64,000 nucleotides of DNA, taken from contig JBBAAQ010000008.1 in NCBI GenBank assembly GCA_041658255.1, positions 3,442 through 67,441 on the forward strand. The letters run 5' to 3'. The notes under the pieces are model-generated. The model searched no databases, was not told where the DNA came from, and saw nothing but the letters and a program-made list of their open reading frames with translations. Made by a program: the position numbers and the translations under genes. This document shows, in pieces, positions 3,133 through 55,370 of this stretch. The number at the start of each line of letters is the position of its first letter. Positions within the stretch are counted from its first letter, which is position 1. This DNA comes from Candidatus Woesearchaeota archaeon (GTDB lineage: Archaea > Nanobdellota > Nanobdellia > Woesearchaeales > UBA9642).

Positions 3133-3456
3133 TTATTTCCTCAGGAGTATCTTTTTTTCAACAATATGTTGCCATCTGCGATTAATTTTAACAACAGTTA
3201 TGATGACAATGTTCTTTTCGATTGCAAGGATATATCGGTGGCAGAGATTTTTGCTATAATCAAAATAACAATCAAATTTCTGCTTCTCTTTACGTATAGC
3301 ATATACTAATCGCTTCGGGTTTAAAATGTTTTCTATAACTTCGTTTTCAGATATCTGCCGCTGAATCATTCGAATATGTGCATGCGGTGTGATAATAATT
3401 TGTTCTCGGCGAAATGGTTTAAGTAGCGTGATAAGTTCATCTTTGCAATTCATCAT
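3133..3456 (-). CDS. DUF4258-like toxin
   Basis: ITPHAHIRMIQRQISENEVIENIL matches the DUF4258 signature (HAxxRMxxRxIS). Confidence 0.5.
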   Translation of the reverse strand: MMNCKDELITLLKPFRREQIIITPHAHIRMIQRQISENEVIENILNPKRLVYAIRKEKQKFDCYFDYSKNLCHRYILAIEKNIVIITVVKINRRWQHIVEKKILLRK

Positions 3457-3513
3457 AGAGAAAAACCGTTATACTTTAAATGTGTTATGCGCACTTGACC
3501 AGTGTGTATAGTG

Positions 3514-3537
3514 AAAAGAAAAGGTGGACAGCGAACC
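3514..3537. repeat. 24-bp duplicate of the 3' end and flank of 5S rRNA gene 1
   Basis: aaaagaaaaggtggacagcgaacc occurs identically at 3514-3537 and 3639-3662. Confidence 0.8.
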
Positions 3538-3646
3538 TCGGATAAGGCAATTGCCTTATGAGCTTTCTTTCCAGTATGGCATACTTCGTAGCCATACGAT
3601 AATGTTTGTATTTGTTTTACTATGTAGAATGAATAATAAAAGAAAA

Positions 3647-3762
3647 GGTGGACAGCGAACCAAGGTTCCCAATCGGAGATCAGTACAACTTGGAACGTGA
3701 GGTTTCTTAACTTCCGAGTTCGAAATGGGATCGGGTGTAACCAACCTGCTATGACCGTCCAG
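3647..3762 (-). rRNA. 5S rRNA (copy 1)
   Basis: The reverse complement reads GGACGGTCATAGCAGGTTGGTTACACCCGATCCCATTTCGAACTCGGAAGTTAAGAAACCTCACG...GGTTCGCTGTCCACC. The conserved 5S loop and helix core is present, and the 5' and 3' ends pair as helix I. Ends are accurate to a few nt. Confidence 0.9.
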
Positions 3763-3783
3763 ATAAAAGGGAATAAAATAACA

Positions 3784-3791
3784 TTTATAAA
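3784..3791. promoter_or_regulatory. Palindromic TATA box (TTTATAAA) between 5S copy 1 and the GT2 gene
   Basis: It lies 22 bp from the 5S 5' end on the minus side and 30 bp from the GT2 ATG on the plus side. Confidence 0.5.
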
Positions 3792-3820
3792 TCTTGTGGT
3801 TTACCTCTTCGTAGGGGACT

Positions 3821-4504
3821 ATGAATACTAAAAACATTTTTATTGTTATTGCCGCATATAATGAGGGCAGAAGCATAAAGCATGTTCTTTCAGGATTAAA
3901 AAAAGCAGGATACAAAAATATTGTGGTTGTTGATGATGGAAGCCGCGACAATACCTTTGATATTATTTCTCAAGAAGGCATATTTGCACTCCGCCACGTG
4001 GTTAATCGTGGACAGGGTGCAGCTTTGAAGACAGGCATAGAATTTGCACTCCGCAATGGCGCAAAATATATTGTCACCTTTGACGCTGACGGGCAGCATC
4101 GTGTCGAGGATTTACCTGCGATGATCCGGCCAGTGATGAATGGTGCGTGTGAGGTAACACTCGGAAGCCGTTTTTTACGGAAAGTAGAAATGCCGTGGTT
4201 TCGCAGATTCACCCTCAAAATTGCGATTCTCGTCATCTGGATATTTTATGGTGTTAAAATGACTGACGCGCATAACGGATTTCGGGTGATGTCGCGAAAA
4301 GCTGCGCAGCAGATTACTATTACTTCTGATCGTATGGAACATGCCTCGCAGATTGTTGAAGAGATCAATAAAAAGAAAATCAGATATAAAGAAATCCCGG
4401 TCGTTATTCAGTATACGCAATATACGCTGCAACATGGTACGGGAAGCTTCTTGCAGGCAATCAAAGTATTTACGCGTATGATTTTGAGAAGGATAATACA
4501 TTAA
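3821..4504 (+). CDS. GT2-family glycosyltransferase (polyprenyl-phosphate sugar synthase-like, soluble)
   Basis: IVIAAYNEGRSI...VVDDGSRDNT...TFDADGQH are GT-A DxD-type motifs. Confidence 0.8.
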   Translation: MNTKNIFIVIAAYNEGRSIKHVLSGLKKAGYKNIVVVDDGSRDNTFDIISQEGIFALRHVVNRGQGAALKTGIEFALRNGAKYIVTFDADGQHRVEDLPAMIRPVMNGACEVTLGSRFLRKVEMPWFRRFTLKIAILVIWIFYGVKMTDAHNGFRVMSRKAAQQITITSDRMEHASQIVEEINKKKIRYKEIPVVIQYTQYTLQHGTGSFLQAIKVFTRMILRRIIH

Positions 4505-4514
4505 AGGTCATGTG

Positions 4515-4967
4515 ATGAAATATACTGAATCTGAAACTGTGGAATTGAAGAAATCTACTGCAGAATTAAAAGAAGCGATTATTAATGCGTTTTGTCACAG
4601 AGATTATTGGGGTGGTGATTCAGTAGATATCGCTATATTTAAGGATTGTAAGGATACTCGTATTACTGTTACGTTTACTTATATTGGAGAAAACTTTTTT
4701 GTTGAAATGAACGATACTACCCAAAAGACTACCCAAAAGACTACCCAAAAGACTACCCAAAATCAGTTGAATGCGGTACAATTACACATTCTTTCATTGC
4801 TCAAAGATGATCCTTCAATTACTCGGGGGGAAATTGCAAAAAAAATAGGAACAATAACCTCTGATGGAGTAAAATATCATCTTAATCTTTTACAAAAAAA
4901 CAAGATTATTAAACGAACCGGCGGAAGAAAACAAGGAGTATGGAACATACTAAAGGTGAAACCATGA
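4515..4967 (+). CDS. Collapsed AlbA_2/HATPase_c_4/wHTH regulator-family protein (probably a decayed gene)
   Basis: It reads YTESETVELKKS (AlbA_2 start), then directly AIINAFCHRDYW (ATPase-like region), then a (TTQK)x3.5 linker and a wHTH tail. Proteins of this family are typically several hundred aa (from memory), whereas this ORF is 150 aa. Confidence 0.45.
   Translation: MKYTESETVELKKSTAELKEAIINAFCHRDYWGGDSVDIAIFKDCKDTRITVTFTYIGENFFVEMNDTTQKTTQKTTQKTTQNQLNAVQLHILSLLKDDPSITRGEIAKKIGTITSDGVKYHLNLLQKNKIIKRTGGRKQGVWNILKVKP
4716..4763 (+). repeat. 12-bp tandem repeat, actacccaaaag x4 (last unit imperfect)
   Basis: Read directly. It encodes TTQKTTQKTTQKTTQN. Confidence 0.9.
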
Positions 4968-5305
4968 TATCAATAATTCAGATTGTAATGATTATTTTTG
5001 CGCTCTTTGCATGGAGCAGGGCATTTGTCCGCTTGCGCGATAAGGATGTTGGTCTTAGAGAATTTGCGTTTTGGAGTATTATTTGGGTCGCAGTCATTGT
5101 ATTTGCACTTGACCCCGGGATTCTTGGAGGAGTATCGTCCATTGTCGGTATCGGGCGTGCAGTTGACCTTGCAGTATATGTCAGTATCATCGTATTGTTT
5201 TATCTCTTGTTCCGGATGTATGTACGCATGGATAGACAGAATCAGGAATTGACTACACTCGTACGGGAGATAGCGATAAAGAACGGGAAAAAGAAGAAGA
5301 AATAA
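4964..5305 (+). CDS. DUF2304-like small membrane protein (GT2-associated)
   Basis: MISIIQIVMIIFALFAWSRAFVRLRDK..., about 3 TM segments and a basic tail. An ATGA overlap links it to the upstream ORF. Confidence 0.5.
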   Translation: MISIIQIVMIIFALFAWSRAFVRLRDKDVGLREFAFWSIIWVAVIVFALDPGILGGVSSIVGIGRAVDLAVYVSIIVLFYLLFRMYVRMDRQNQELTTLVREIAIKNGKKKKK

Positions 5306-5369
5306 ATTTATGTATTGCGTCTGCAGAGTATCACAACATTTATAAACAATCCTATTTATAGGAGTGATT

Positions 5370-6023
5370 ATGCCTAAAAATAGGATTAATCTATCGCGCA
5401 AGGATTATGAAATAATCCTCCCTTTTATTAAAGAGCCGTGGAGCAAATATACATTCAAGGATATCAAGCGAATCTCTGGTAAACGTTCTGAAAGTTATGT
5501 GTATACCACTCTTAAAAAATATGTTAAGGAAGATGCGTTAATTGAGGAGAAAGTGGGCAATACACTCATTTATAGGGTTAATTTTGAACAATATTCGGCG
5601 CTGAGTTATTTTGGTTTTATTGCTGAACAATTCGCATGGAATTCTAAACAATTGCCTCATGATACGATTAAAAAAATTTTATCAAAGATTTCAGCAGCCT
5701 ATTTTACTTGTATCATAACAGGAAGTTATGCATCCCAGAAACAGCGCAGTGATTCTGACCTTGACATTGTTATTATCTGCGATGATACGCAGGATACAAA
5801 AAATTTACTCGCACGGATACATTATACCTGCGAGCTCTCAATCCCGCACGTTCATCCATATATTTTTAAGCGATCAGAATTCATAGAAATGCTTCTCAAT
5901 AATCACGCAAATTATGGCAAAGAAATTGTGAAGAATAACTTACTGCTATTTGGCGGGTCATATTATTTTAAGATGATGGGTGAGGTGATGCAACATGGAT
6001 TTAATGATACGAATCTATCTTGA
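5370..6023 (+). CDS. wHTH plus minimal nucleotidyltransferase (MNT-like) protein
   Basis: GSYASQKQRSDSDLDIVIICDD carries the GS...DxD nucleotidyltransferase motif. It is a paralogue of the ORF at 34330-34929. Confidence 0.6.
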   Translation: MPKNRINLSRKDYEIILPFIKEPWSKYTFKDIKRISGKRSESYVYTTLKKYVKEDALIEEKVGNTLIYRVNFEQYSALSYFGFIAEQFAWNSKQLPHDTIKKILSKISAAYFTCIITGSYASQKQRSDSDLDIVIICDDTQDTKNLLARIHYTCELSIPHVHPYIFKRSEFIEMLLNNHANYGKEIVKNNLLLFGGSYYFKMMGEVMQHGFNDTNLS

Positions 6024-12993: not shown

Positions 12994-13103
12994 GTTATTT
13001 TTCAATTGGTGGTCTTATATAAATTTTTCTAAAAAATAAAATTTTTTATTGTTCGGTAAAAAATAACGCTATTACCTTTTCTCATATTAAAATAATAAAA
13101 ATA

Positions 13104-13217
13104 TGGACAGCGAATCAAGGTTCCCAAACACAAGTGTAGTACAACTTGAAACGTGAGGTTGCTTGACTTCTAAGTTCGAGATGGGGCCAGTGTGACCGAC
13201 CTGCTATAGCAATCCAA
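13104..13217 (-). rRNA. 5S rRNA (copy 2, divergent)
   Basis: The reverse complement reads TTGGATTGCTATAGCAGGTCGGTCACACTGGCCCCATCTCGAACTTAGAAGTCAAGCAACCTCACG...GATTCGCTGTCCAT. By eye it is about three-quarters identical to copy 1, and differences fall in paired positions. Confidence 0.8.
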
Positions 13218-40282: not shown

Positions 40283-40717
40283 TTAGAACTCTTCAGAATC
40301 TTGCGATGCGTCGTAATTCTCTTCAGGTGCTGCTTCTTCTGCTTGTTCTGCAGGTGCTGCTGCATCTTCACTTGGTGCCGCTGCTTCTGATGTTGTGCCT
40401 TCTTCATAGCTTCCGACAACTTCAGCAAATGCAACCTTTTTAGCAACTTTCTTGACGCGAATCTTTACCTTATCGCCGACTTTTGTTCCGGGTACAAAAA
40501 TGACAAATCCTGCTTTTTTAGCAATACCGTCGCCTTTTTCTGCAACTGCTTCAATCACTGCATTGATCTCTTCACCTTCTTTTACCGGTGAAAATCCGTG
40601 ATCTGAGCCGCCACGATAACCGCCACCGCCCATGCCTCTACTCCCGCCGCCGCGATCGCCGCCATATCGGTTGCCACCGCCGCCACTAAAACTTCTTCGT
40701 TTTTCTCCATACTCCAT
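40283..40717 (-). CDS. TRAM-domain protein with an N-terminal RGG-rich region and an acidic tail
   Basis: PVKEGEEINAVIEAVAEKGDGIAKKAGFVIFVPGTKVGDKVKIRVKKVAKKVAFAEVV is a TRAM domain. The N-terminus reads GGGGNRYGGDRGGGSRGMGGGGYRGG. Confidence 0.75.
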   Translation of the reverse strand: MEYGEKRRSFSGGGGNRYGGDRGGGSRGMGGGGYRGGSDHGFSPVKEGEEINAVIEAVAEKGDGIAKKAGFVIFVPGTKVGDKVKIRVKKVAKKVAFAEVVGSYEEGTTSEAAAPSEDAAAPAEQAEEAAPEENYDASQDSEEF

Positions 40718-40929: not shown

Positions 40930-41075
40930 AAGATGAGCAGATGCAAAGAACTATTCGAGAAAAACGGACAGAATTTTCACTACGTTCAAATTTCCTGCAG
41001 GGAAATTGCAAATGGTACGTTTTTCAATCAAATAGCATATAAATCTGCGAATGGCGACTACGAGCGAAGTGAGAA
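40930..41075 (+). repeat. Repeat-family member, related to the nrdD gap sequence; contains a 52-codon ORF at 40933-41091
   Basis: It shares agaaaaacggacag and attgcaaRtggtacgtttttcaWtcaaa with the reverse complement of 49140-49254. Confidence 0.65.
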
Positions 41076-41087
41076 ATTCTACAAAGT

Positions 41088-41453
41088 CTAAGGAAAGGGT
41101 ATTTCTGGATAGTTATCTTCACGTGTGATCTGTCCATCCCTTTCTTCTGCACTGAGAATGATATACTCCTCGCGTTCCATCCCCATATATTGTCCTGGAA
41201 TGTGGAGGAGTTTACGTGTTCCTGATTCTTCATATGCAGAACCTTTTGAGTATTCAATGACTGCAGTAAATGTGTTGTTGTTTACTAATCCTGTAATAAT
41301 TATTTTTTGTTCAGAACCTGTCACGGTTTTTGAATACGTCGGGGTATGATAATAGATGTGCAGCCTATCTTTACGTAATCTTTCTGTTGTCTGAGGATAG
41401 TTTTTCGCGAATATGCTATCAATACTTGATTGTTCATCAATTGTTGGTGCCAT
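41088..41453 (-). CDS. Hypothetical protein
   Basis: 121-aa ORF with no recognisable motif. Confidence 0.35.
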   Translation of the reverse strand: MAPTIDEQSSIDSIFAKNYPQTTERLRKDRLHIYYHTPTYSKTVTGSEQKIIITGLVNNNTFTAVIEYSKGSAYEESGTRKLLHIPGQYMGMEREEYIILSAEERDGQITREDNYPEIPFP

Positions 41454-47019: not shown

Positions 47020-47739
47020 TTATCTTACTTCCACAATCCCCACTTTCCCTTCAAATATTTTTTTAAAGTGATGTAATTCTTTTTCAGAATAGGATTTCTC
47101 ATCCTTAAATGTATTATCGATCAGATCTTTTTCTGTCTTGAATTGTTGCAACACATATTTTTTTGCTCCAGTAATCCACGATGCGATCGCTTCAAGATCT
47201 TTTGGCGAATGTAATTTGGGAAGAACTGTTGTTCGGAATTCATAATCGATTAATCCATCGCGTCCTGCATTGATGATGAGTCGGACGCTTTTTTTGATCT
47301 GTTCGATACTTACTTTTGCGCATACAGTCTCTTCATAGCGTTCTTGACTATTTTTGATGTCCATTGCGATATAATCGACGAGTTTTTCATCAATAGCTTT
47401 TTGGATAATCAGAGGAAATGATCCGTTGGTATCAAGTTTGACAAGCAATTTACGTCTCTTAATCTCGCGCATAAAGTCGAGAATTCCCGGATGCATAAGC
47501 GGCTCTCCGCCAAGCAACACGATTCCATCAATCCATTTACGTTTCTTATCGATGAATGCAAAGAATTCAACAGGCGTGATATCCGGAAATTCCTCCTCAT
47601 TGAAGATGAGTTCTGGATTATGACAATACGGACAACGAAAATTGCATCGACTAAAGAATACGACTGTTGAAATCTTATCCGGATAATCGATGAGTGAAGA
47701 TTTCACAATCCCTTTGATGTGGATATCCATCTCTTTCAT
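47020..47739 (-). CDS. nrdG: Anaerobic ribonucleotide reductase activating radical SAM protein
   Basis: FFSRCNFRCPYCHNPE (CxxxCxxC) and LLGGEPL, in an RNR operon context. Confidence 0.75.
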   Translation of the reverse strand: MKEMDIHIKGIVKSSLIDYPDKISTVVFFSRCNFRCPYCHNPELIFNEEEFPDITPVEFFAFIDKKRKWIDGIVLLGGEPLMHPGILDFMREIKRRKLLVKLDTNGSFPLIIQKAIDEKLVDYIAMDIKNSQERYEETVCAKVSIEQIKKSVRLIINAGRDGLIDYEFRTTVLPKLHSPKDLEAIASWITGAKKYVLQQFKTEKDLIDNTFKDEKSYSEKELHHFKKIFEGKVGIVEVR

Positions 47740-48390
47740 TTACATCTGCTCCAATAGTTTTGGAAGTTCAGTAAGTGAAGTAATCCTGTTCGGGTAATCA
47801 GAATTCTTATTTTTCCGGTCAATAAGGATTCCTTTGATGCCAAAGTCCTCTGCACTTTGCACATCTAAACGTAACGAATCTCCGACCATAATGACTTCAT
47901 CTTTAGAGACACTGAGTTTTTCGAGTGCGATTTCATAGATACGCGGGTCGGGTTTTTGCATACCGACTTCGTATGAGAGAATAATTTCATCAACGAGTTC
48001 ATAGAGGGGAAATTTCTCAAATATCTGTTTCATTGATATATTAGTGGTATTACTCAAGATTGCAATCTTATATCTCTTTTTTAATTCTTGCAATACGGCA
48101 ATCGTTTCCGGAAATGCATATTTTCTTACTGTTCCATTCTTTTTAAAAATTTCACAGAGTTCATGAATAAGTCCTTCGTTCACATCAACTCCGATATTTT
48201 TCGTAAATTCATGCATGGTCTGTTCAATATGTGTAATGGGGTGTGCCATGAATGTTTCACTAAATACAGTATAGAATTCTGGATTGCGATATGTTCTTCC
48301 TAATTTTGTCGCGAATTCTTCAAAGGGGAGTGTTGTTGCATCTGACTCGAATAATGTCCCCCATAAATCGAAAATAATCGCTTTAATCAT
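47740..48390 (-). CDS. HAD-superfamily hydrolase
   Basis: IIFDLWGTLF (motif I) and MVGDSLRLDV (motif IV). Confidence 0.75.
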   Translation of the reverse strand: MIKAIIFDLWGTLFESDATTLPFEEFATKLGRTYRNPEFYTVFSETFMAHPITHIEQTMHEFTKNIGVDVNEGLIHELCEIFKKNGTVRKYAFPETIAVLQELKKRYKIAILSNTTNISMKQIFEKFPLYELVDEIILSYEVGMQKPDPRIYEIALEKLSVSKDEVIMVGDSLRLDVQSAEDFGIKGILIDRKNKNSDYPNRITSLTELPKLLEQM

Positions 48391-48638
48391 TTGAGAATTG
48401 CATTCATCTCTTCAAGTGTTGGCGAAACGCCATTCCATTCCTTAACGACATTCTTTTCTTCATCAAGAACTACGACCGAAGGAGTCGCCATGACACCATA
48501 ATCAAGTGCTTCAGCAAGTCCGTCTGCAGTTTGGATATCATGATATTCAACCATCGTCTTATGCTCGACTTGTGAAATCACCTTCTTTGCTGCTGGGCAC
48601 TTCGGACAGCTTGGTTGGATAAACACTTTAATGATCAT
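48387..48638 (-). CDS. Thioredoxin/glutaredoxin-like small redox protein
   Basis: IKVFIQPSCPKCPAAKKV (CxxC) and ATPSVVV. An ATGA overlap links it to the HAD gene. Confidence 0.7.
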   Translation of the reverse strand: MIIKVFIQPSCPKCPAAKKVISQVEHKTMVEYHDIQTADGLAEALDYGVMATPSVVVLDEEKNVVKEWNGVSPTLEEMNAILK

Positions 48639-48842
48639 TGCATTCACCTATTTTGAATCTAATCTTCATCAATAACCCCTGCCATCCTTATAATCATATA
48701 CTATCTAAAAATATATTCTCATCATTAAAAAAATACTGTGACTATAGTAAATCGCTTTAATTTTCGGATAACAAAAAACGCTTTGCGTTTTAGGTTTTCG
48801 GGAATCTTTGATTTCCTAAATATCTAAAAGCGATTTACTATC

Positions 48843-48886
48843 TAGCAAATAACATCGCAGTATCCGAATATTAATGTTATTTGCTA
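48843..48886 (-). terminator. 13-bp-stem hairpin 13 nt downstream of the nrdD C-terminal ORF
   Basis: tagcaaataacat-N18-atgttatttgcta. Confidence 0.3.
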
Positions 48887-48898
48887 TAATAACACCAG

Positions 48899-49066
48899 TT
48901 ATTTAGGGCGTCCGCAATCGTCCTCAACTTCATAATTTCCTTTCTGTCGGCTTTTGAATTCTGCTTTCTTTGATTTATTCCAATTATTGATTCGGGAAAA
49001 GTACCCGACTACGCGGCTGACACCATACACATTCTTGCTTCCACACTGCTTACATTTTGCTCCCAT
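48899..49066 (-). CDS. nrdD: Separate 55-aa ORF encoding the NrdD second CxxC pair and glycyl-radical motif
   Basis: Not in the track because it is under 60 aa. Manual translation gives MGAKCKQCGSKNVYGVSRVVGYFSRINNWNKSKKAEFKSRQKGNYEVEDDCGRPK*. RVVGYF...NWNK.K..EF..R is the conserved class III RNR glycyl-radical C-terminus. Confidence 0.75.
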   Translation of the reverse strand: MGAKCKQCGSKNVYGVSRVVGYFSRINNWNKSKKAEFKSRQKGNYEVEDDCGRPK

Positions 49067-49139
49067 GACTGCACCTCATCATTTGAATATGACTTACTGT
49101 TACCATCGCTCGCATTCTTATTTTAATATTGTTGCTGTC

Positions 49140-49254
49140 GTTCGTGTTTGCGATTACTGTCGCTCGCATTTGATACATGTTTTTGAATGAAAAACGTACC
49201 ACTTGCAATCCTGTCCGTTTTTCTTGATTGTGCGTTTGTTGATGCTCGCATCTT
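49140..49254 (-). repeat. Repeat-family member inside the nrdD gap; contains a 42-codon ORF at 49123-49251
   Basis: See the entry for 40930-41075. There is an 8-bp hairpin stem, gaaaaacg/cgtttttc. Confidence 0.6.
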
Positions 49255-49287
49255 GACAGTAATCGTACAGTACACTACTAATTTTTC

Positions 49288-51771
49288 TTAATCCCGATCG
49301 TACCCTCTGGTTACTGAATGGCAATCCTCGCATACAGTAAATTCTGGACTAATCGTTATTTGTGCTGAAACAGTATTTGTCCAAGTCTTCTTTACAAGTT
49401 CATAAATCGCTTTTGGGCTTGGGGTTTTTTCACCTGCAAATACGTGGGTGATTGCTCCTGCTTCAATGATGGGATTGAACTTGGCCTGCTTCTCAATGCG
49501 TTCCATAATATCTACTGGCGCGTCTGCTGCTAAGTGGATGCTATTGGTATAATAGACTTCTCCTTTACTGATGTCTCCGCGTACAAAGTCGCGGCTTTCA
49601 GGATATTCCTGCAAATCAACTTTTGCAAATCGTAGGGATGTTGATTCTCCGGGTGTTTCTTCAAGGACGAGTTTGAGGCTGTGCTGTTCTTCAAGTTGTT
49701 TAGCTTTAAGATACATGCTTGATGCAATCTTTAATCCTAATCGATATGCCTGGTCTGATTCATGAAGTGCCTTACCTGTTAAATATTTAACACATTCATT
49801 AAGTCCAATCATTCCAATAATATAACTTGCATCATTCAAATCAACATAAGGTCTTCCATCATGCGCTTTCATCCCAATCTGCCATAGCGGAGTTCCTGGT
49901 TGGTTACTGATTTTTGTGATGAATGCCTTCTTTTGGAGATGTGCTTTCATGGCAAGATCCATTGTTTTTTTGATTTCTTCAATTGTTCCTTCAACAGTTT
50001 TTCCACGGTATGCTGCCTGTGGAAGATTAATTGTTACATTCTGGAATCCGCAGAAACGTAAACTTTCAGGATGCAATAAGAGATAATTATCTGTTATTTT
50101 AGTTCTTAACCTACAACATGCAGAAAGTGTTGCCTTATCGCGATCAAACACAAAATACGGGCTCCCATTGTCTGAAGCGATCTTACACGCATATTCTAAT
50201 AATTCGCGTTGGCTCAAATCATCAAAAGAATCTTGATCAACATGAAGGTCCATCTTTGGGAATGCAAACATTTTACCCTCACTATCCCCCTTATGCCATA
50301 TTTCCATTAATGCCCGGCAAAATTCTTGCGCCTCTTTTTTGAAATCTTGATACACTAAAATTTTTCCCTCTTTAGGATTGAGCTGTTTAAGGGTATCATC
50401 AGGATTACGGGGGATTTCATCAACATAATCAATTGTTCCATTGACTCGTTTAATCATATATTTGCCGCCAGGACCGATTGCAGGAATATTTTGCATATAT
50501 TCGGGAATGCCCATGTGGATGTTGAAATCAATGAAGAGTGTCTGCCCCCCGCGACTGAACGCATTCTGCGAGCAACTAAAGATTAAGAATTGTGCTTCTT
50601 GTTTAATCTGTTTCTCACTTAATCCAACAAGAAGTGGTGCGTAAAAAATGTTGAGATATGCAAGACCTAAAGCGCCCGCATAGTATGCTTGTATTGATGC
50701 AAGAAATGTATTCAAATGACTTGTTAATGTATCTGCATGTTTGGCTGGTGTTGAACCGCTATTAAGATTGTTCAGTTTGAGACCATATTTTTTAATATAT
50801 TCAGGTGAATGTGCTGAGCAGTAGACGCGGATAATATGCCCTAAATCATGGAGGTGTAGCGCTGCTTTGAGATGCGCTTCAGCAACATCTTTACTAAAAA
50901 CTTCCTTGAGTGCATATTGTTTAAGTACTAATTCAGCTATTGCAAGATTTACCGCTTCAGGATTATTATTGACAACATTACTATCCTCATTATTTTTAGA
51001 AAAGATGACTTGGTTAAGGTTATACACACTGATGCCCATGATTTCCTGTTTTTCAAGTTTTTTTGTGTATCCGCGTTCAAAGAGTTCATTATTTACAAGT
51101 TCGCGAAGTAGTGATACTGAGATTGTCTTGACACCTGATTTCATGACCTTTTTTTCAATACATGATGCGATTTGTTCTGATTCCTCCTTTTCGAGTTTGA
51201 TCTCTTTTATGAGTGCATCGACAATGCGCTGGCGATTCCACTCATTAATCGTTCCTTTGACTGGTGTTGATACGAGAAGATTAAAATCAGTAGTGTCCTG
51301 ACCGCTTCCTTGTTGGTCATGAGATACAATTCTAAGATTTTTGAGTTCATGCTCAAACTCATCTAGATCCTTAAACTGGCGATAGACTGATGCAAACCTA
51401 ATATATGCAATCTCATCAAGTGCCTTAAGATGTTTCATGATAATATCGCCAATAATCGTACTCTTTATTTCATTAGTCTCTTGATTGTAGACATCTGCTT
51501 CAACTTCAGAAACAACTGCTTCAATGCGTTGAGAACTAATAGGTCGTTTCTCGCATGCTTTAACGATGCCTTTAAGAATCTTATCGCGGGTGAATGGTTC
51601 ACGTCTCCCGTCTTTTTTAATGACTTGGACTTCAACCATCTCAATAGTCTCATAAGTAGTGAATCGTTTACCACATTTGAGACATTCTCTTCTACGCCTA
51701 TTCGTATCATCATCAGAGACACGTTTATCAACAACTTTAATTTCAGAACTTGAACAAAATGGGCATTTCAT
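49288..51771 (-). CDS. nrdD: NrdR-NrdD fusion: a complete NrdR (Zn ribbon plus ATP-cone) fused to a class III ribonucleotide reductase body that lacks the glycyl-radical C-terminus
   Basis: The N-terminus reads MKCPFCSSSEIKVVDKRVSDDDTNRRRRECLKCGKRFTTYE...KRPISSQRIEAVV...LDEIAYIRFASVYRQFKDLDEF, collinear with bacterial NrdR. The NrdD body follows. The ORF ends in FTVCEDCHSVTRGYDRD*, after only the first CxxC pair. Confidence 0.85.
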   Translation of the reverse strand: MKCPFCSSSEIKVVDKRVSDDDTNRRRRECLKCGKRFTTYETIEMVEVQVIKKDGRREPFTRDKILKGIVKACEKRPISSQRIEAVVSEVEADVYNQETNEIKSTIIGDIIMKHLKALDEIAYIRFASVYRQFKDLDEFEHELKNLRIVSHDQQGSGQDTTDFNLLVSTPVKGTINEWNRQRIVDALIKEIKLEKEESEQIASCIEKKVMKSGVKTISVSLLRELVNNELFERGYTKKLEKQEIMGISVYNLNQVIFSKNNEDSNVVNNNPEAVNLAIAELVLKQYALKEVFSKDVAEAHLKAALHLHDLGHIIRVYCSAHSPEYIKKYGLKLNNLNSGSTPAKHADTLTSHLNTFLASIQAYYAGALGLAYLNIFYAPLLVGLSEKQIKQEAQFLIFSCSQNAFSRGGQTLFIDFNIHMGIPEYMQNIPAIGPGGKYMIKRVNGTIDYVDEIPRNPDDTLKQLNPKEGKILVYQDFKKEAQEFCRALMEIWHKGDSEGKMFAFPKMDLHVDQDSFDDLSQRELLEYACKIASDNGSPYFVFDRDKATLSACCRLRTKITDNYLLLHPESLRFCGFQNVTINLPQAAYRGKTVEGTIEEIKKTMDLAMKAHLQKKAFITKISNQPGTPLWQIGMKAHDGRPYVDLNDASYIIGMIGLNECVKYLTGKALHESDQAYRLGLKIASSMYLKAKQLEEQHSLKLVLEETPGESTSLRFAKVDLQEYPESRDFVRGDISKGEVYYTNSIHLAADAPVDIMERIEKQAKFNPIIEAGAITHVFAGEKTPSPKAIYELVKKTWTNTVSAQITISPEFTVCEDCHSVTRGYDRD

Positions 51772-51791
51772 GTTTACCAAACTCCGATAAC

Positions 51792-52175: not shown

Positions 52176-55100
52176 TTATAATCCGCACCCACCATTTTTA
52201 TTTCCACAACCAGGACAGGAATAACAATTAGGTGTTGTTCGATCCATTGCGCTACCGCATTCATTACACATGACTCCGCGATCATTGGTTAATTCAGATT
52301 TTTTGAATCCATTTGATTTTTTTCCGTTAGTGCCGTTAGTGTTTTCTTTAGTACCTGTAACAAATCCTCCAAAAATCGAGTCATTGATGACTTCTTCAAA
52401 ATTCCAGTCATTAATATGCCGCCGAGCATAGGTCTGAATTGCGCCATTCTTTGTTCCGCGTAGTTTGTTAATATCCACTGTTGAAGGATCATTAGCAATG
52501 TCAACATCACCAAGATATTCAAGTCGTAAGAGTTTTCCTGCAAAATCAAGCGGTGAAAGCGCGGTTTTAATATAGGAGTGGTCAAAGACTAATCCTTTTG
52601 GTTCGAATTCATCACCAATCCATCCTTTTAAGACATCTTCAAGTTCAACGCCACGTTTCAAAGATGCTGATGCTTGAATCCCTGCCTGTCGAAGCATTGC
52701 TCCTAATGTAGATCCCCCTTTATAGGATTCAATAACAATCTGACCAATACGTCCGTCTGGATATTCGCCTGTGATAAAATGAAATTTAGTGCCTCCGATT
52801 TTAACTTCATATTCATGCCCGGGTCTGTCTGGTGGGAGATCCTCTTTTTCTCCGCGCTTTAACGCAATCATCCTCTTATCTCCAAAGCTGAGTGCGCTAA
52901 TAGGTTTGCTATCATCACGAAAGATTGCAATTGCCTTTAATCCCAGTTTATAACTAAGAAGATATGCATCATAGATATTTTTAACTGTAGCTGATTTTGG
53001 AAAATTACTCGTTTTCGAAATAGCACCCGAGATAAACGGTTGTGCTGCAGCAAGCATACGTACATGACCCTCAAACGGCATTGCTCCTAAACCATCTACA
53101 TTACCAGTAGCTGTCTCGAAAATTTTGTAATGTTCTGGATTCATGTGTGGAGCGCCTACAACAGTGCTGCGTGCAACTCTGGGTCGGATCTCTTCAGTAA
53201 TATATTTATTGATCTCACTAATTTGCGCTTCAGTATATCTCAGATTATGCAATGCATTTGGTACCTCATTATTTACCAGTGTTAATGTCCCTCCTCCTGC
53301 AAGGTTTTTAAAAATACTTAGTGAGTAGGATGGCTCAATACCTGTAGTATCGCAACCCATCAAGAAGGATATTGTACCTGTCGGGGCAATGACACTTGCT
53401 TGACCATTCCGGAATCCATATCTTCGACCGTTATTTACTACCTTATTCCAGGTGTGGTATACTTCGTCCTTTAATGCAGGATCAATATGTTCCCACTGAA
53501 TTTCATCAAGATTTTTCTGATGTTTTTTAATAACTTCACGCATAGGTTTACGATTAAATTCATAATGGGTGAATGTTCCACGTGCTTTTGCTAATTCAGT
53601 TGATTCTTCATATACTGCGCCTGTCATGAGCGCAGTAACTGCGCCTGCAAATGCGCGCCCTTCATCAGAATCATACGCAACTCCTTTACGCATCAATAGT
53701 GCGCCGATATTTGCATAGCCGAGTCCAACATTACGGAATTCAGGACTAATTGCTGCAATATCTTTAACAGGGTATGATGATACATCATTGATAATATCTA
53801 ATGCAATCCCTGTTATCTTCGATCCGTGCTTAAAACTTTGATAATCGAAGTTTCCATTTTGATCGCTGAAACGAAGAAGATTGAGTGATGCAAGATTACA
53901 TGCAGTATCATCAATGAACATATATTCAGAGCAGGGATTACTGGAATTAATGTTTCCAGAATTCTTTGCAGTATGCATTTCCTGAGTTTTTGATTCATAT
54001 TGGACTCCAGGATCGCCGATGCGCCAGGTCCCGAATGCAATCTCTTGAAGCATGCGACGTGCAGCTATCTTTCCTACAACTTTTCCATCGGTTACTTGAT
54101 GGAATTCGACTATTCCGTCTTTTTCTACCTGATCAAAAAAATAGTCATCGAGCCGTATGGAAAGATTAGTGTTTTGGAGTGCGACTGTAGTGTACGCTTC
54201 ACCATCCATACCGCCACTATATCCATTTTGCATAAGGATGAGTGCTTTATGGTCTTCGCGTACTTTTCGGCGGATGAATTCTAAACTGTCAGGATGATGA
54301 TACCTTGTGGTGGTCATGCGCGCAGCGCGTCTAGTCTTCCCGCCGGATTTTATTGTTCCCGCAGCATGATCATAGCTTACAAGAAAACTCATACTACCCG
54401 AAGATACTCCGCCACTTGATAAGGGTTCGCCCTCTCCGCGCAAACGATCAATACCTTGACCAACGCCTGATCCTGACTTAAAAATCATAGCCTCATTCTT
54501 ATGATGTTCAGCAATACTTTCAATATCATCATGAGGGCCAGTGATAAAACAGGCATGACTTTGTGGTTTTATCCATGAACCTTTAGTGATTATTTGAACT
54601 TCACCTGTTTGTGAATCACGCCAGTACTGTTTTCCCCCGCTTCCTGCAATCCCATATTCATTATAGATTCCTGCATTGAATTGGACTGGCGAGTTGAATG
54701 CCATCTTTCGATTAATTTGAAGCCATTTGAGTTCGTCTTTGAATGCTTCTTTGTCTGTAGAAGTCTTGAAATATCCTAATTTTTCTCCCTCATCTGCAAT
54801 AAAATTTGTGACTCGGGTGATGAGATGAGTAATGGATTGTTCGTAAGGTTTTCCAATCTTTTCTTGTATCTTTTCTTGCCACTCAGGTTTTCGAGGTTTA
54901 AACAGATAACGATGTGCGACAATCGTGACATCATTATCACCCCAACTTTCTGGAAAGAGTGCATCATCCATATGAAATACTGTTCTTCCTTTATTATCAG
55001 TAATTGTGACTGCACGTTCAGTATAAGGTCCAACTGTGTCAAATGGATCAATTTTTCCATCAGTAAAATACCGTTTGATCTCTATACCTTCACCTTTTTT

Positions 55101-55337
55101 CGATTCATGATATACCCGCCCGATATCTAATCGATCAAGATATTGCGCGTTATTAAATTGGTGGACAGTAATATTCTTTTTATTTATTGCATTAACTAAT
55201 TTTTCTAATGGGAGATTCTTATCTTTTTGACTTTTGATGAGGTCATATGCTGCTTCAAGCGGGATATGTCGTTCTTTATCGTACGTATCTAAGCTTGTTT
55301 TAGAATAAATTGCGCTTGTTTTATTAGCTTTCATCAT
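52176..55337 (-). CDS. nrdJ: Class II (adenosylcobalamin-dependent) ribonucleotide reductase
   Basis: The active-site region reads SSNPCSEYMFIDDTACNLASLNL. There is a C-terminal Cys-rich tail, CNECGSAMDRTTPNCYSCPGCGNKNGGCG. The ATG at 55337 is preferred over the GTG at 55358. Confidence 0.85.
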   Translation of the reverse strand: MMKANKTSAIYSKTSLDTYDKERHIPLEAAYDLIKSQKDKNLPLEKLVNAINKKNITVHQFNNAQYLDRLDIGRVYHESKKGEGIEIKRYFTDGKIDPFDTVGPYTERAVTITDNKGRTVFHMDDALFPESWGDNDVTIVAHRYLFKPRKPEWQEKIQEKIGKPYEQSITHLITRVTNFIADEGEKLGYFKTSTDKEAFKDELKWLQINRKMAFNSPVQFNAGIYNEYGIAGSGGKQYWRDSQTGEVQIITKGSWIKPQSHACFITGPHDDIESIAEHHKNEAMIFKSGSGVGQGIDRLRGEGEPLSSGGVSSGSMSFLVSYDHAAGTIKSGGKTRRAARMTTTRYHHPDSLEFIRRKVREDHKALILMQNGYSGGMDGEAYTTVALQNTNLSIRLDDYFFDQVEKDGIVEFHQVTDGKVVGKIAARRMLQEIAFGTWRIGDPGVQYESKTQEMHTAKNSGNINSSNPCSEYMFIDDTACNLASLNLLRFSDQNGNFDYQSFKHGSKITGIALDIINDVSSYPVKDIAAISPEFRNVGLGYANIGALLMRKGVAYDSDEGRAFAGAVTALMTGAVYEESTELAKARGTFTHYEFNRKPMREVIKKHQKNLDEIQWEHIDPALKDEVYHTWNKVVNNGRRYGFRNGQASVIAPTGTISFLMGCDTTGIEPSYSLSIFKNLAGGGTLTLVNNEVPNALHNLRYTEAQISEINKYITEEIRPRVARSTVVGAPHMNPEHYKIFETATGNVDGLGAMPFEGHVRMLAAAQPFISGAISKTSNFPKSATVKNIYDAYLLSYKLGLKAIAIFRDDSKPISALSFGDKRMIALKRGEKEDLPPDRPGHEYEVKIGGTKFHFITGEYPDGRIGQIVIESYKGGSTLGAMLRQAGIQASASLKRGVELEDVLKGWIGDEFEPKGLVFDHSYIKTALSPLDFAGKLLRLEYLGDVDIANDPSTVDINKLRGTKNGAIQTYARRHINDWNFEEVINDSIFGGFVTGTKENTNGTNGKKSNGFKKSELTNDRGVMCNECGSAMDRTTPNCYSCPGCGNKNGGCGL

Positions 55338-55354
55338 GTACACCCAACCCAAAA

Positions 55355-55370
55355 ACACAATATATTGTGT
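55355..55370. promoter_or_regulatory. Perfect 16-bp NrdR-box palindrome ACACAATATATTGTGT
   Basis: Read directly. It lies 18 bp upstream of the class II RNR ATG and just downstream of an AATATTTAAAAG TATA-like element. Confidence 0.7.

Follow-up and report, generated by a model that had tools for sequence, protein, structure and literature searches.

The DNA analysed here, a stretch of 64,000 nucleotides (nt) from a Candidatus Woesearchaeota archaeon that we call the window, carries nrdD, which encodes the anaerobic (class III) ribonucleotide reductase (RNR). The coding sequence lies in two adjacent open reading frames (ORFs) on the minus strand, a large one (nrdD-L) and a small one (nrdD-S), and the features at their junction are these:

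49288..51780, minus strand: nrdD-L, large subunit gene, 830 amino acids (aa) counted from a TTG (Pfam, TIGR02487)
49288..49290, minus strand: TAA stop of nrdD-L, read from the sequence
49067..49287, minus strand: intergenic spacer, 221 nt, separating the two cistrons
49072..49077, minus strand: Shine-Dalgarno (SD)-like GAGGTG, 5 nt before the ATG of nrdD-S
48899..49066, minus strand: nrdD-S, small glycyl-radical subunit gene, 55 aa (end of the NRDD profile, end of TIGR02487, and the ratio of nonsynonymous to synonymous substitution rates, dN/dS)

The start of nrdD-L is more likely the ATG at 51771 (MKCPFC...) than the TTG. The encoded protein has an NrdR-type zinc ribbon, one or more ATP-cones, the NRDD catalytic barrel and the first CxxC pair of the zinc site (Pfam families NRDD, ATP-cone and Zn_ribbon_NrdR). 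It matches Pfam NRDD PF13597 with E 1.5e-105 over profile positions 1-517 of 562 and the NCBIfam NrdD model TIGR02487 with 331 bits, above the cut-off of 326. Its C-terminal end reads ...FTVCEDCHSVTRGYDRD, and the stop falls 10 residues past the first CxxC pair (CEDC). Both cysteines of this pair are invariant across the large ORFs in the alignment, and the motif CCRL, a candidate counterpart of the finger-loop thiyl-radical cysteine, Cys290 of T4, is likewise invariant in the clade (C548, C549, R550 and L551 of alignment A4). The first ~150 aa of nrdD-L (51331-51780, minus strand) resemble a complete NrdR transcriptional repressor, zinc ribbon plus ATP-cone, fused to NrdD; this region scores 188 bits against TIGR00244 (cut-off 125) and matches solved NrdR structures with E 8e-39, and the same NrdR-like/NrdD fusion is found in most homologues of the clade.

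The product of nrdD-S, MGAKCKQCGSKNVYGVSRVVGYFSRINNWNKSKKAEFKSRQKGNYEVEDDCGRPK, opens with MGAKCKQCGSKNVYGVSRVVGYF... and contains CKQC, the second CxxC pair, together with the glycyl-radical motif SRVVGYF. It matches positions 523-561 of the 562 of the NRDD profile (Pfam, E 1.5e-10) and also the C-terminal end of TIGR02487. Its start context in the window is gatGAGGTGcagtcATG, and an SD-like 6-mer of this kind precedes just 5 of the 2703 ATGs of the window. The two ORFs are in different frames (49288-48899 = 389 = 3x129+2), and the frame of nrdD-L meets a second stop within the gap at 49123-49125. Joined, they give CEDC-x14-CKQC followed by the radical motif, a C-terminus that is colinear, with no rearrangement, with the solved NrdD structures 8p23, 4coi and 1h78 (Prevotella copri, Thermotoga maritima and phage T4, respectively), the break falling between the cysteine pairs. 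The four cysteines align to the cysteine pairs of 8p23 and 4coi, and they are predicted to bind the metal. An earlier note on this DNA, made from the letters and the list of ORFs, had described the split after the first CxxC, the 55-aa ORF with the second pair and the radical motif 221 nt downstream, the normal NrdD C-terminus obtained by joining the two, the change of frame and the second stop; each of these points is borne out.

The earlier note also called for a comparison of nrdD in related genomes, and its assumption that the gap interrupts an otherwise intact gene does not survive that comparison. The set comprised 80 genome loci and 49 metagenome loci around relatives which, together with the window, make 130. 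The gene is split at the same point in 82 loci, the window included (81 of the 129 fetched); it is contiguous in 40, and 8 loci are cut off or atypical. In all 82 split loci the large ORF stops before the glycine motif, and a small ORF of 48-87 aa lies directly downstream on the same strand. The distance from the large-ORF stop to the small-ORF ATG ranges from -20 to +1975 nt (median 15.5), with 22 loci overlapping, often in ATGA style, 48 at 0-100 nt and 12 at more than 100 nt, and the relative frames 0, 1 and 2 occur in 12, 30 and 40 loci, respectively. GAGGTG, GGAGG or a similar sequence precedes the small-ORF ATG in 76 of the 82. The shortest large-ORF tail past the cysteine pair is 9 aa and the shortest N-terminal extension of the small ORF is 3 aa, the window having 10 aa and 4 aa. 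Among the best 120 homologues of the large ORF (55-85% identical), 91 stop 9-56 aa past the first CxxC and lack the glycine motif, and 26 are contiguous. The bacterial relatives in the set are contiguous, with their cysteine pairs 10 residues apart. The closest relative of the window, L001, is a metagenome-assembled genome (MAG) labelled Nanoarchaeota, with 87% identity over the C-terminal 176 aa. The MAGs with split loci bear labels that include Nanoarchaeota, Woesearchaeota, Nanohaloarchaeota, Micrarchaeota, Aenigmatarchaeota, Iainarchaeum, Heimdallarchaeota/Promethearchaeati and Bathyarchaeia. The gene for the radical-SAM (S-adenosylmethionine) activase, nrdG, is near 74 of 81 split loci, and it is present in all of the 42 loci whose sequence extends 2.5 kb or more downstream.

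Purifying selection acts on the small ORF: for the window against its nearest relatives, dN is 0.09-0.17 and dS is saturated (>1.8), giving a dN/dS of 0.04-0.09. All the small ORFs keep the second cysteine pair and R18, V20 and G21 of the radical motif unchanged, and the R-V-G-Y core is invariant or nearly so; variants among the relatives include CxxC[NKH]S and VGFF. A word-index search with the small ORF returned only stand-alone proteins (44 of 44 matches, 41-84 aa). An exhaustive profile search found 1936 proteins at E<=0.001, of which 237 reach E<=1e-10, with nearly all of the top ~50 cluster representatives being 48-118 aa long. These small proteins are annotated in their sources only as 'ribonucleoside-triphosphate reductase' or 'hypothetical', and neither Pfam nor NCBIfam holds a family dedicated to them.

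The split point, both ORFs, their translation signals and the neighbouring nrdG are thus conserved, and we hold it to be highly probable that the class III RNR of this DPANN-type archaeon is made from two adjacent cistrons as a conserved design. A two-piece enzyme was among the explanations that the earlier note had offered, and it is the one favoured by the conserved split, the small ORF's own SD and ATG, and its dN/dS.

Three further groups of sequences in the set show variations on these chains. The small subunits of the window's subclade have short, acidic, cysteine-bearing C-terminal tails, often with CxC (DCGCRK, ECECK, CDCKN, EKCC), which we noted in L001, L003, L004, L081, L082, L084, L085, L087 and the window itself (48899-48930), where the tail has one cysteine only (DDCGRPK). 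Such tails are reminiscent of the redox-shuttle cysteines at the C-terminal end of class I and class II RNRs and would fit the adjacent thioredoxin-like gene. The small subunits of seven Asgard loci (L049, L054-L056, L062, L064 and L066; Heimdallarchaeota and related) carry N-terminal extensions of 31-36 aa and an extra cysteine just before the CxxC (C-x4-C-x2-C), and the large subunits of the same loci share the tail ...GYGR.(M/L)SSSAHS. Two metagenome loci (L112 and L113) and one from a bacterial MAG (L073) have NrdD-like ORFs with both cysteine pairs that end without RVxGY, and no glycyl-radical ORF was found elsewhere in these three loci.

The contiguous archaeal forms bear on the history of the split. 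A neighbour-joining tree built from the ~420 C-terminal residues of the large ORF, which has no support values, places the contiguous archaeal pairs L042/L097 and L048/L058 among split forms. In contiguous L042 the linker reads ...AEDGGEKMEEARC... (AEDGGEKM, ~4570-4600) and is encoded GAT GGA GGT GAA AAG ATG, so that an in-frame GGAGGTGA and ATG stand where the split relatives place their ribosome-binding site and start. This linker looks like the product of a re-fusion, or like an internal start site that is still in use, and fused and split forms appear, from these sequences, to interconvert in evolution. Other contiguous forms also have the motif DGGE in their linkers, and some split forms have it in their tails. 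Throughout the archaeal clade the linker between the cysteine pairs is long, variable and of low complexity. An AlphaFold2 (AF2) model of a contiguous relative (P0023) has a mean predicted local distance difference test (pLDDT) of 76, with pLDDT <50 at linker residues 825-834, and such a variable linker, modelled with low confidence, fits a site that would tolerate a chain break.

The spacer between the two cistrons is longer in the window than in many of its relatives. In the window's subclade, whose large ORFs end in GYDR[D/N/G], the spacers measure 18-61 nt in eight loci and are longer in six, as follows:

Window, 221 nt: holds no gene
L003, 330 nt: truncated form of a ~150-aa ORF (~4503-4810)
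L086, 467 nt: 147-aa ORF (1978-2421)
L004, 518 nt: 165-aa ORF (4374-4871)
L001, about 1210-1260 nt: three ORFs (4747-5786), one distantly related to the L086 ORF
L082, 1975 nt: 559-aa thymidylate-synthase-like gene (3264-4943) with MtrA-like and pterin-binding regions

The ~150-aa spacer proteins of L001, L086 and L003 are weakly related to one another, and the 165-aa ORF of L004 has no detected similarity to them. Pfam gave no match for the ~150-aa ORFs, and tblastn of the relatives' spacer ORFs against the window gave none either. Compared in this way, the junction of nrdD-L and nrdD-S reads as an ordinary intergenic region that accepts insertions and is a hot spot for them in relatives. The 221-nt gap is, on the same comparison, best read as an intergenic spacer enlarged in this lineage and not as an intervening sequence needing removal. 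The following elements lie within it or repeat part of it:

49154..49262, minus strand: conserved non-coding block, ~69% identical to the start of the L001 spacer (~110 nt)
49151..49161 and 49255..49265, minus strand: perfect 11-nt inverted-repeat arms, CGATTACTGTC / GACAGTAATCG, with 93 nt between
49095-49115, 49149-49169 and 49231-49251, minus strand (span 49095..49251): three 21-nt direct repeats, each headed by ATGCGAGC
49189..49223, minus strand: hairpin whose sense strand has a T5 run (GGTACGTTTTTC...), the part of the spacer that recurs at 41.0 kb
40958..41087, plus strand: second, partial copy of the spacer element, at an unrelated intergenic site

Synonymous sites are saturated between the window and L001, yet the block at 49154-49262 is conserved between them; it contains the inverted repeat, two of the ATGCGAGC repeats and the T5-run hairpin. 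The pairing of the inverted repeat is retained in L001, with one two-sided change. No conserved small protein was found in the gap: a 1-nt indel between the window and L001 inside the block leaves no common frame, and the block is therefore non-coding. It may be a regulatory module, with termination or attenuation after nrdD-L and then a TATA-like stretch before the next cistron; between the cistrons, the hairpin at 49189-49223 may serve as an archaeal signal for termination or attenuation. The description of the gap as structured holds for the perfect inverted repeat and not for the fold overall, which has no extra stability over shuffled sequence (z-score -0.93). All three copies of ATGCGAGC that had been reported for the gap are there, within the 21-nt direct repeats, and they are the only occurrences, against 1.44 expected in the whole window. 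The repeat reported at 40.9 kb is real but partial: the similarity at 40958-41032 amounts to 26/28 nt plus 14/14 nt (nhmmer E 3e-5), and the copy reads GAAAAACGGACAG ... ATTGCAAATGGTACGTTTTTCAATCAAA, with a 32-nt insertion. It lies between a TRAM-domain gene (40283-40717) and another gene (41088-41453), in the orientation opposite to both, and Pfam gave no match on the ORFs around 41 kb. An nhmmer search of the window and the 129 loci with the window/L001 spacer element found only this copy.

These repeats are the main attraction of an explanation in which a contiguous nrdD was recently split by a small element, of the kind known as miniature inverted-repeat transposable elements (MITEs), with both halves keeping or gaining expression signals. 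The spacer is ~170 nt longer than in the eight sister lineages, it holds inverted and direct repeats, a partial second copy exists in the window, and the same spacer attracts insertions in relatives. However, the split predates the insertion, since it is already present in the close relatives with spacers of 18-61 nt, which share the GYDR[D/N/G]-stop tail and the SD and ATG. In addition, the inverted repeat is internal rather than terminal, no target-site duplication was seen, and the only extra copy is the partial one in the window, with none in the 129 loci. We consider this origin of the split very improbable. What stands of the proposal is the extra DNA: the comparison supports a gain of ~170 nt by the window's spacer within a pre-existing intergenic region.

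An intron removed from the RNA (group I, group II or bulge-helix-bulge), with splicing that restores a single NrdD frame, was the first alternative of the earlier note. A group I intron is known in the nrdD of phage T4 (PMC2988022), the gap has its 11-nt perfect inverted repeat and hairpin, and the joined reading resembles a normal NrdD. Against this, an Rfam scan of 48700-49500 at E<=10 gave only chance-level matches and no intron (group I and group II included), riboswitch, frameshift element or other family, and the fold z-score is the unremarkable one given above. The gap is conserved only in part and with one relative only, the small ORF has its own SD and ATG, and elsewhere the split occurs with spacers of 18-61 nt in the eight sister lineages, with overlapping ORFs at other loci and in all three frames. 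Spacers that vary or overlap, mixed frames and independent translation signals together exclude both an intron and ribosomal bypass or frameshifting, and we give the intron hardly any credence.

A decaying pseudogene, in which nrdD was broken by mutation or insertion, is just as hard to credit. The stop is premature in comparison with single-chain NrdD, the frame changes and a second in-frame stop follows, but the identical architecture recurs at 82 loci, the small ORF has a dN/dS of 0.04-0.09, the large ORF is intact and above the TIGR02487 cut-off, the catalytic and zinc cysteines are invariant, and nrdG and the thioredoxin-like gene are intact nearby. The selection data and the intact operon thus exclude this explanation.

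A single polypeptide made from both ORFs, by translational bypass or frameshifting or by protein trans-splicing, has precedents in the ribosomal bypass of a 50-nt gap in phage T4 gene 60 (bioRxiv 10.1101/2022.08.31.505936) and in inteins elsewhere in some homologues (Pfam intein domains in P0067, P0075 and P0080), but it is scarcely conceivable here, where the gaps run from overlap to ~2 kb with several stops and whole genes inside, no take-off or landing context is conserved, Pfam finds no intein domain in either ORF, and flanks of down to 9 aa (large-ORF tail) and 3 aa (small-ORF extension) are too short for split-intein halves.

Several points weigh against the two-cistron design. The assembly of the two chains, the binding of zinc across them and the presence of the radical on the small protein are all deduced from sequence. 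The taxonomic labels of the MAGs are unreliable in places, the AF2 model of P0023 places the glycyl-radical domain with low confidence, and the long spacer of the window, with its T5 hairpin and TATA-like stretch, means that the two cistrons are maybe not strictly co-expressed.

If the two-cistron design is right, nrdD-L would supply the catalytic barrel, preceded by the regulatory NrdR-like/ATP-cone region, together with the first zinc half-site; the second half-site and the radical-carrying glycine would come from nrdD-S, translated from its own SD and ATG. The two proteins would form a heteromer equivalent to a single-chain NrdD. One zinc ion would be bound 2+2 by cysteines of both chains, a clamp that would tether the small subunit while its glycine loop enters the barrel. 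NrdG would place the radical on the small subunit, and the thioredoxin-like neighbour would supply the electrons. Because the large subunit itself lacks a glycyl-radical domain, the small protein would be an obligate subunit and not a backup.

The gene order in the window is nrdD-L, nrdD-S, a thioredoxin-like gene, a gene for an HAD hydrolase, and nrdG, and the features downstream of nrdD-S are:

48775..48791, minus strand: terminator-like hairpin and T-run (AAAACGCAAAGCGTTTT TTGTT), ~110 nt past the nrdD-S stop
48387..48647, minus strand: thioredoxin/glutaredoxin-like gene (Pfam)
47020..47739, minus strand: nrdG, radical-SAM activase (TIGR02495 NrdG2, E 1.6e-54)

A homologue of the thioredoxin-like gene is found at 78 of 81 split loci, and this neighbour is the probable reductant partner. 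The hairpin at 48775-48791 suggests that nrdD-L/nrdD-S and thioredoxin-HAD-nrdG are maybe separate transcription units. Directly upstream of nrdD-L lies a gene for a 1060-aa class II (B12-type) RNR (52176-55358, minus strand) with a cysteine-rich C-terminal tail (CNECGS...CYSCPGCGNKNGGCGL), so that this genome has two oxygen-independent RNRs side by side. Farther away are two 5S rRNA genes on the minus strand, 3647-3762 and 13102-13217, ~9.5 kb apart (74 and 49.5 bits); these were the only Rfam matches at gathering thresholds in the whole window, and no tRNA was found in the 64 kb.

The locus shares with the single-chain NrdD/NrdG systems of phage T4, Thermotoga maritima and Prevotella copri the NRDD domain, the ATP-cone, the four-cysteine zinc site, RVxGY and the neighbouring nrdG. 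It differs from them in that the break in the chain falls within the zinc site, which leaves the radical glycine on a separate protein of 48-87 aa with its own ribosome-binding site. To our knowledge, glycyl-radical enzymes characterised so far always carry the radical glycine on the catalytic chain; in particular, one polypeptide holds both in all characterised class III members, which is not true of this locus. The glycyl-radical domain must swing out to the activase and then be buried again. In P. copri NrdD a single C-terminal domain of the chain holds both the zinc site and the glycine loop, and recent cryo-electron microscopy found this domain to be highly dynamic and to move largely as a rigid body (PMC11226230). 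Our searches of the full-text literature outside subscription journals turned up phage cases and the split class II enzyme only, and no account of a cellular class III RNR whose radical domain is a separate subunit; an earlier mention beyond that coverage is possible.

GrcA/YfiD, the autonomous glycyl-radical cofactor of pyruvate formate-lyase, is the nearest functional analogue of nrdD-S, with sequence likeness considered at the glycine motif only; the spare-part analogy that the earlier note drew from it is still speculative. Both are small stand-alone homologues of an enzyme's C-terminal radical domain that could in principle be activated and supplied in trans. However, GrcA is a spare for an enzyme already equipped with a radical domain, whereas nrdD-S is the sole source of the radical glycine, and GrcA, in contrast to nrdD-S, has no half zinc site. 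Another partial parallel is the split class II enzyme NrdJa/NrdJb of Pseudomonas aeruginosa and some phages, in which the RNR catalytic chain also comes from two consecutive ORFs, and in which the C-terminal piece bears a zinc-finger region (PMC9669993; PMC4520616; PMC3653736). That enzyme belongs to another RNR class, uses a cobalamin cofactor, is split at another site and has no radical on its C-terminal piece. Among phages, the NrdA of Aeromonas phage Aeh1 is encoded by genes in pieces yet functional (PMC2988022), and phage nrdD genes are interrupted by introns, inteins or unexplained fragmentation (PMC3653736). Such cases are sporadic, phage-specific and tied to homing endonucleases, introns or inteins, unlike the nrdD-L/nrdD-S split, which is a stable trait of a cellular clade and mostly has no mobile element at the junction.

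Candidate advantages of the separation are cheap replacement after cleavage by oxygen, off-enzyme activation, and control via subunit supply. We put forward only tentatively, as a possible but rather doubtful extension of the two-cistron design, that the small subunit is an exchangeable cofactor, activated off the enzyme by NrdG, docking via the shared zinc site and swapped after oxygen cleavage or radical loss. If so, repair would cost a 6-kDa peptide as against a 95-kDa enzyme, the supply of small subunit could control activity, and the in-frame SD and ATG fossils in contiguous relatives would mean interconversion of fused and split forms. A two-chain enzyme, if real, would allow the spare-part idea for oxygen damage to be tested directly, and a radical domain acting in trans, clamped by a shared zinc site, would be a system in which to study activation, docking and radical transfer. 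Annotation could be corrected as well: the large ORFs now pass for complete NrdD, and the small ones are often overlooked or labelled hypothetical. The split form appears to be the usual anaerobic RNR of DPANN and Asgard archaea, and it is relevant to the metabolic reconstruction of both.

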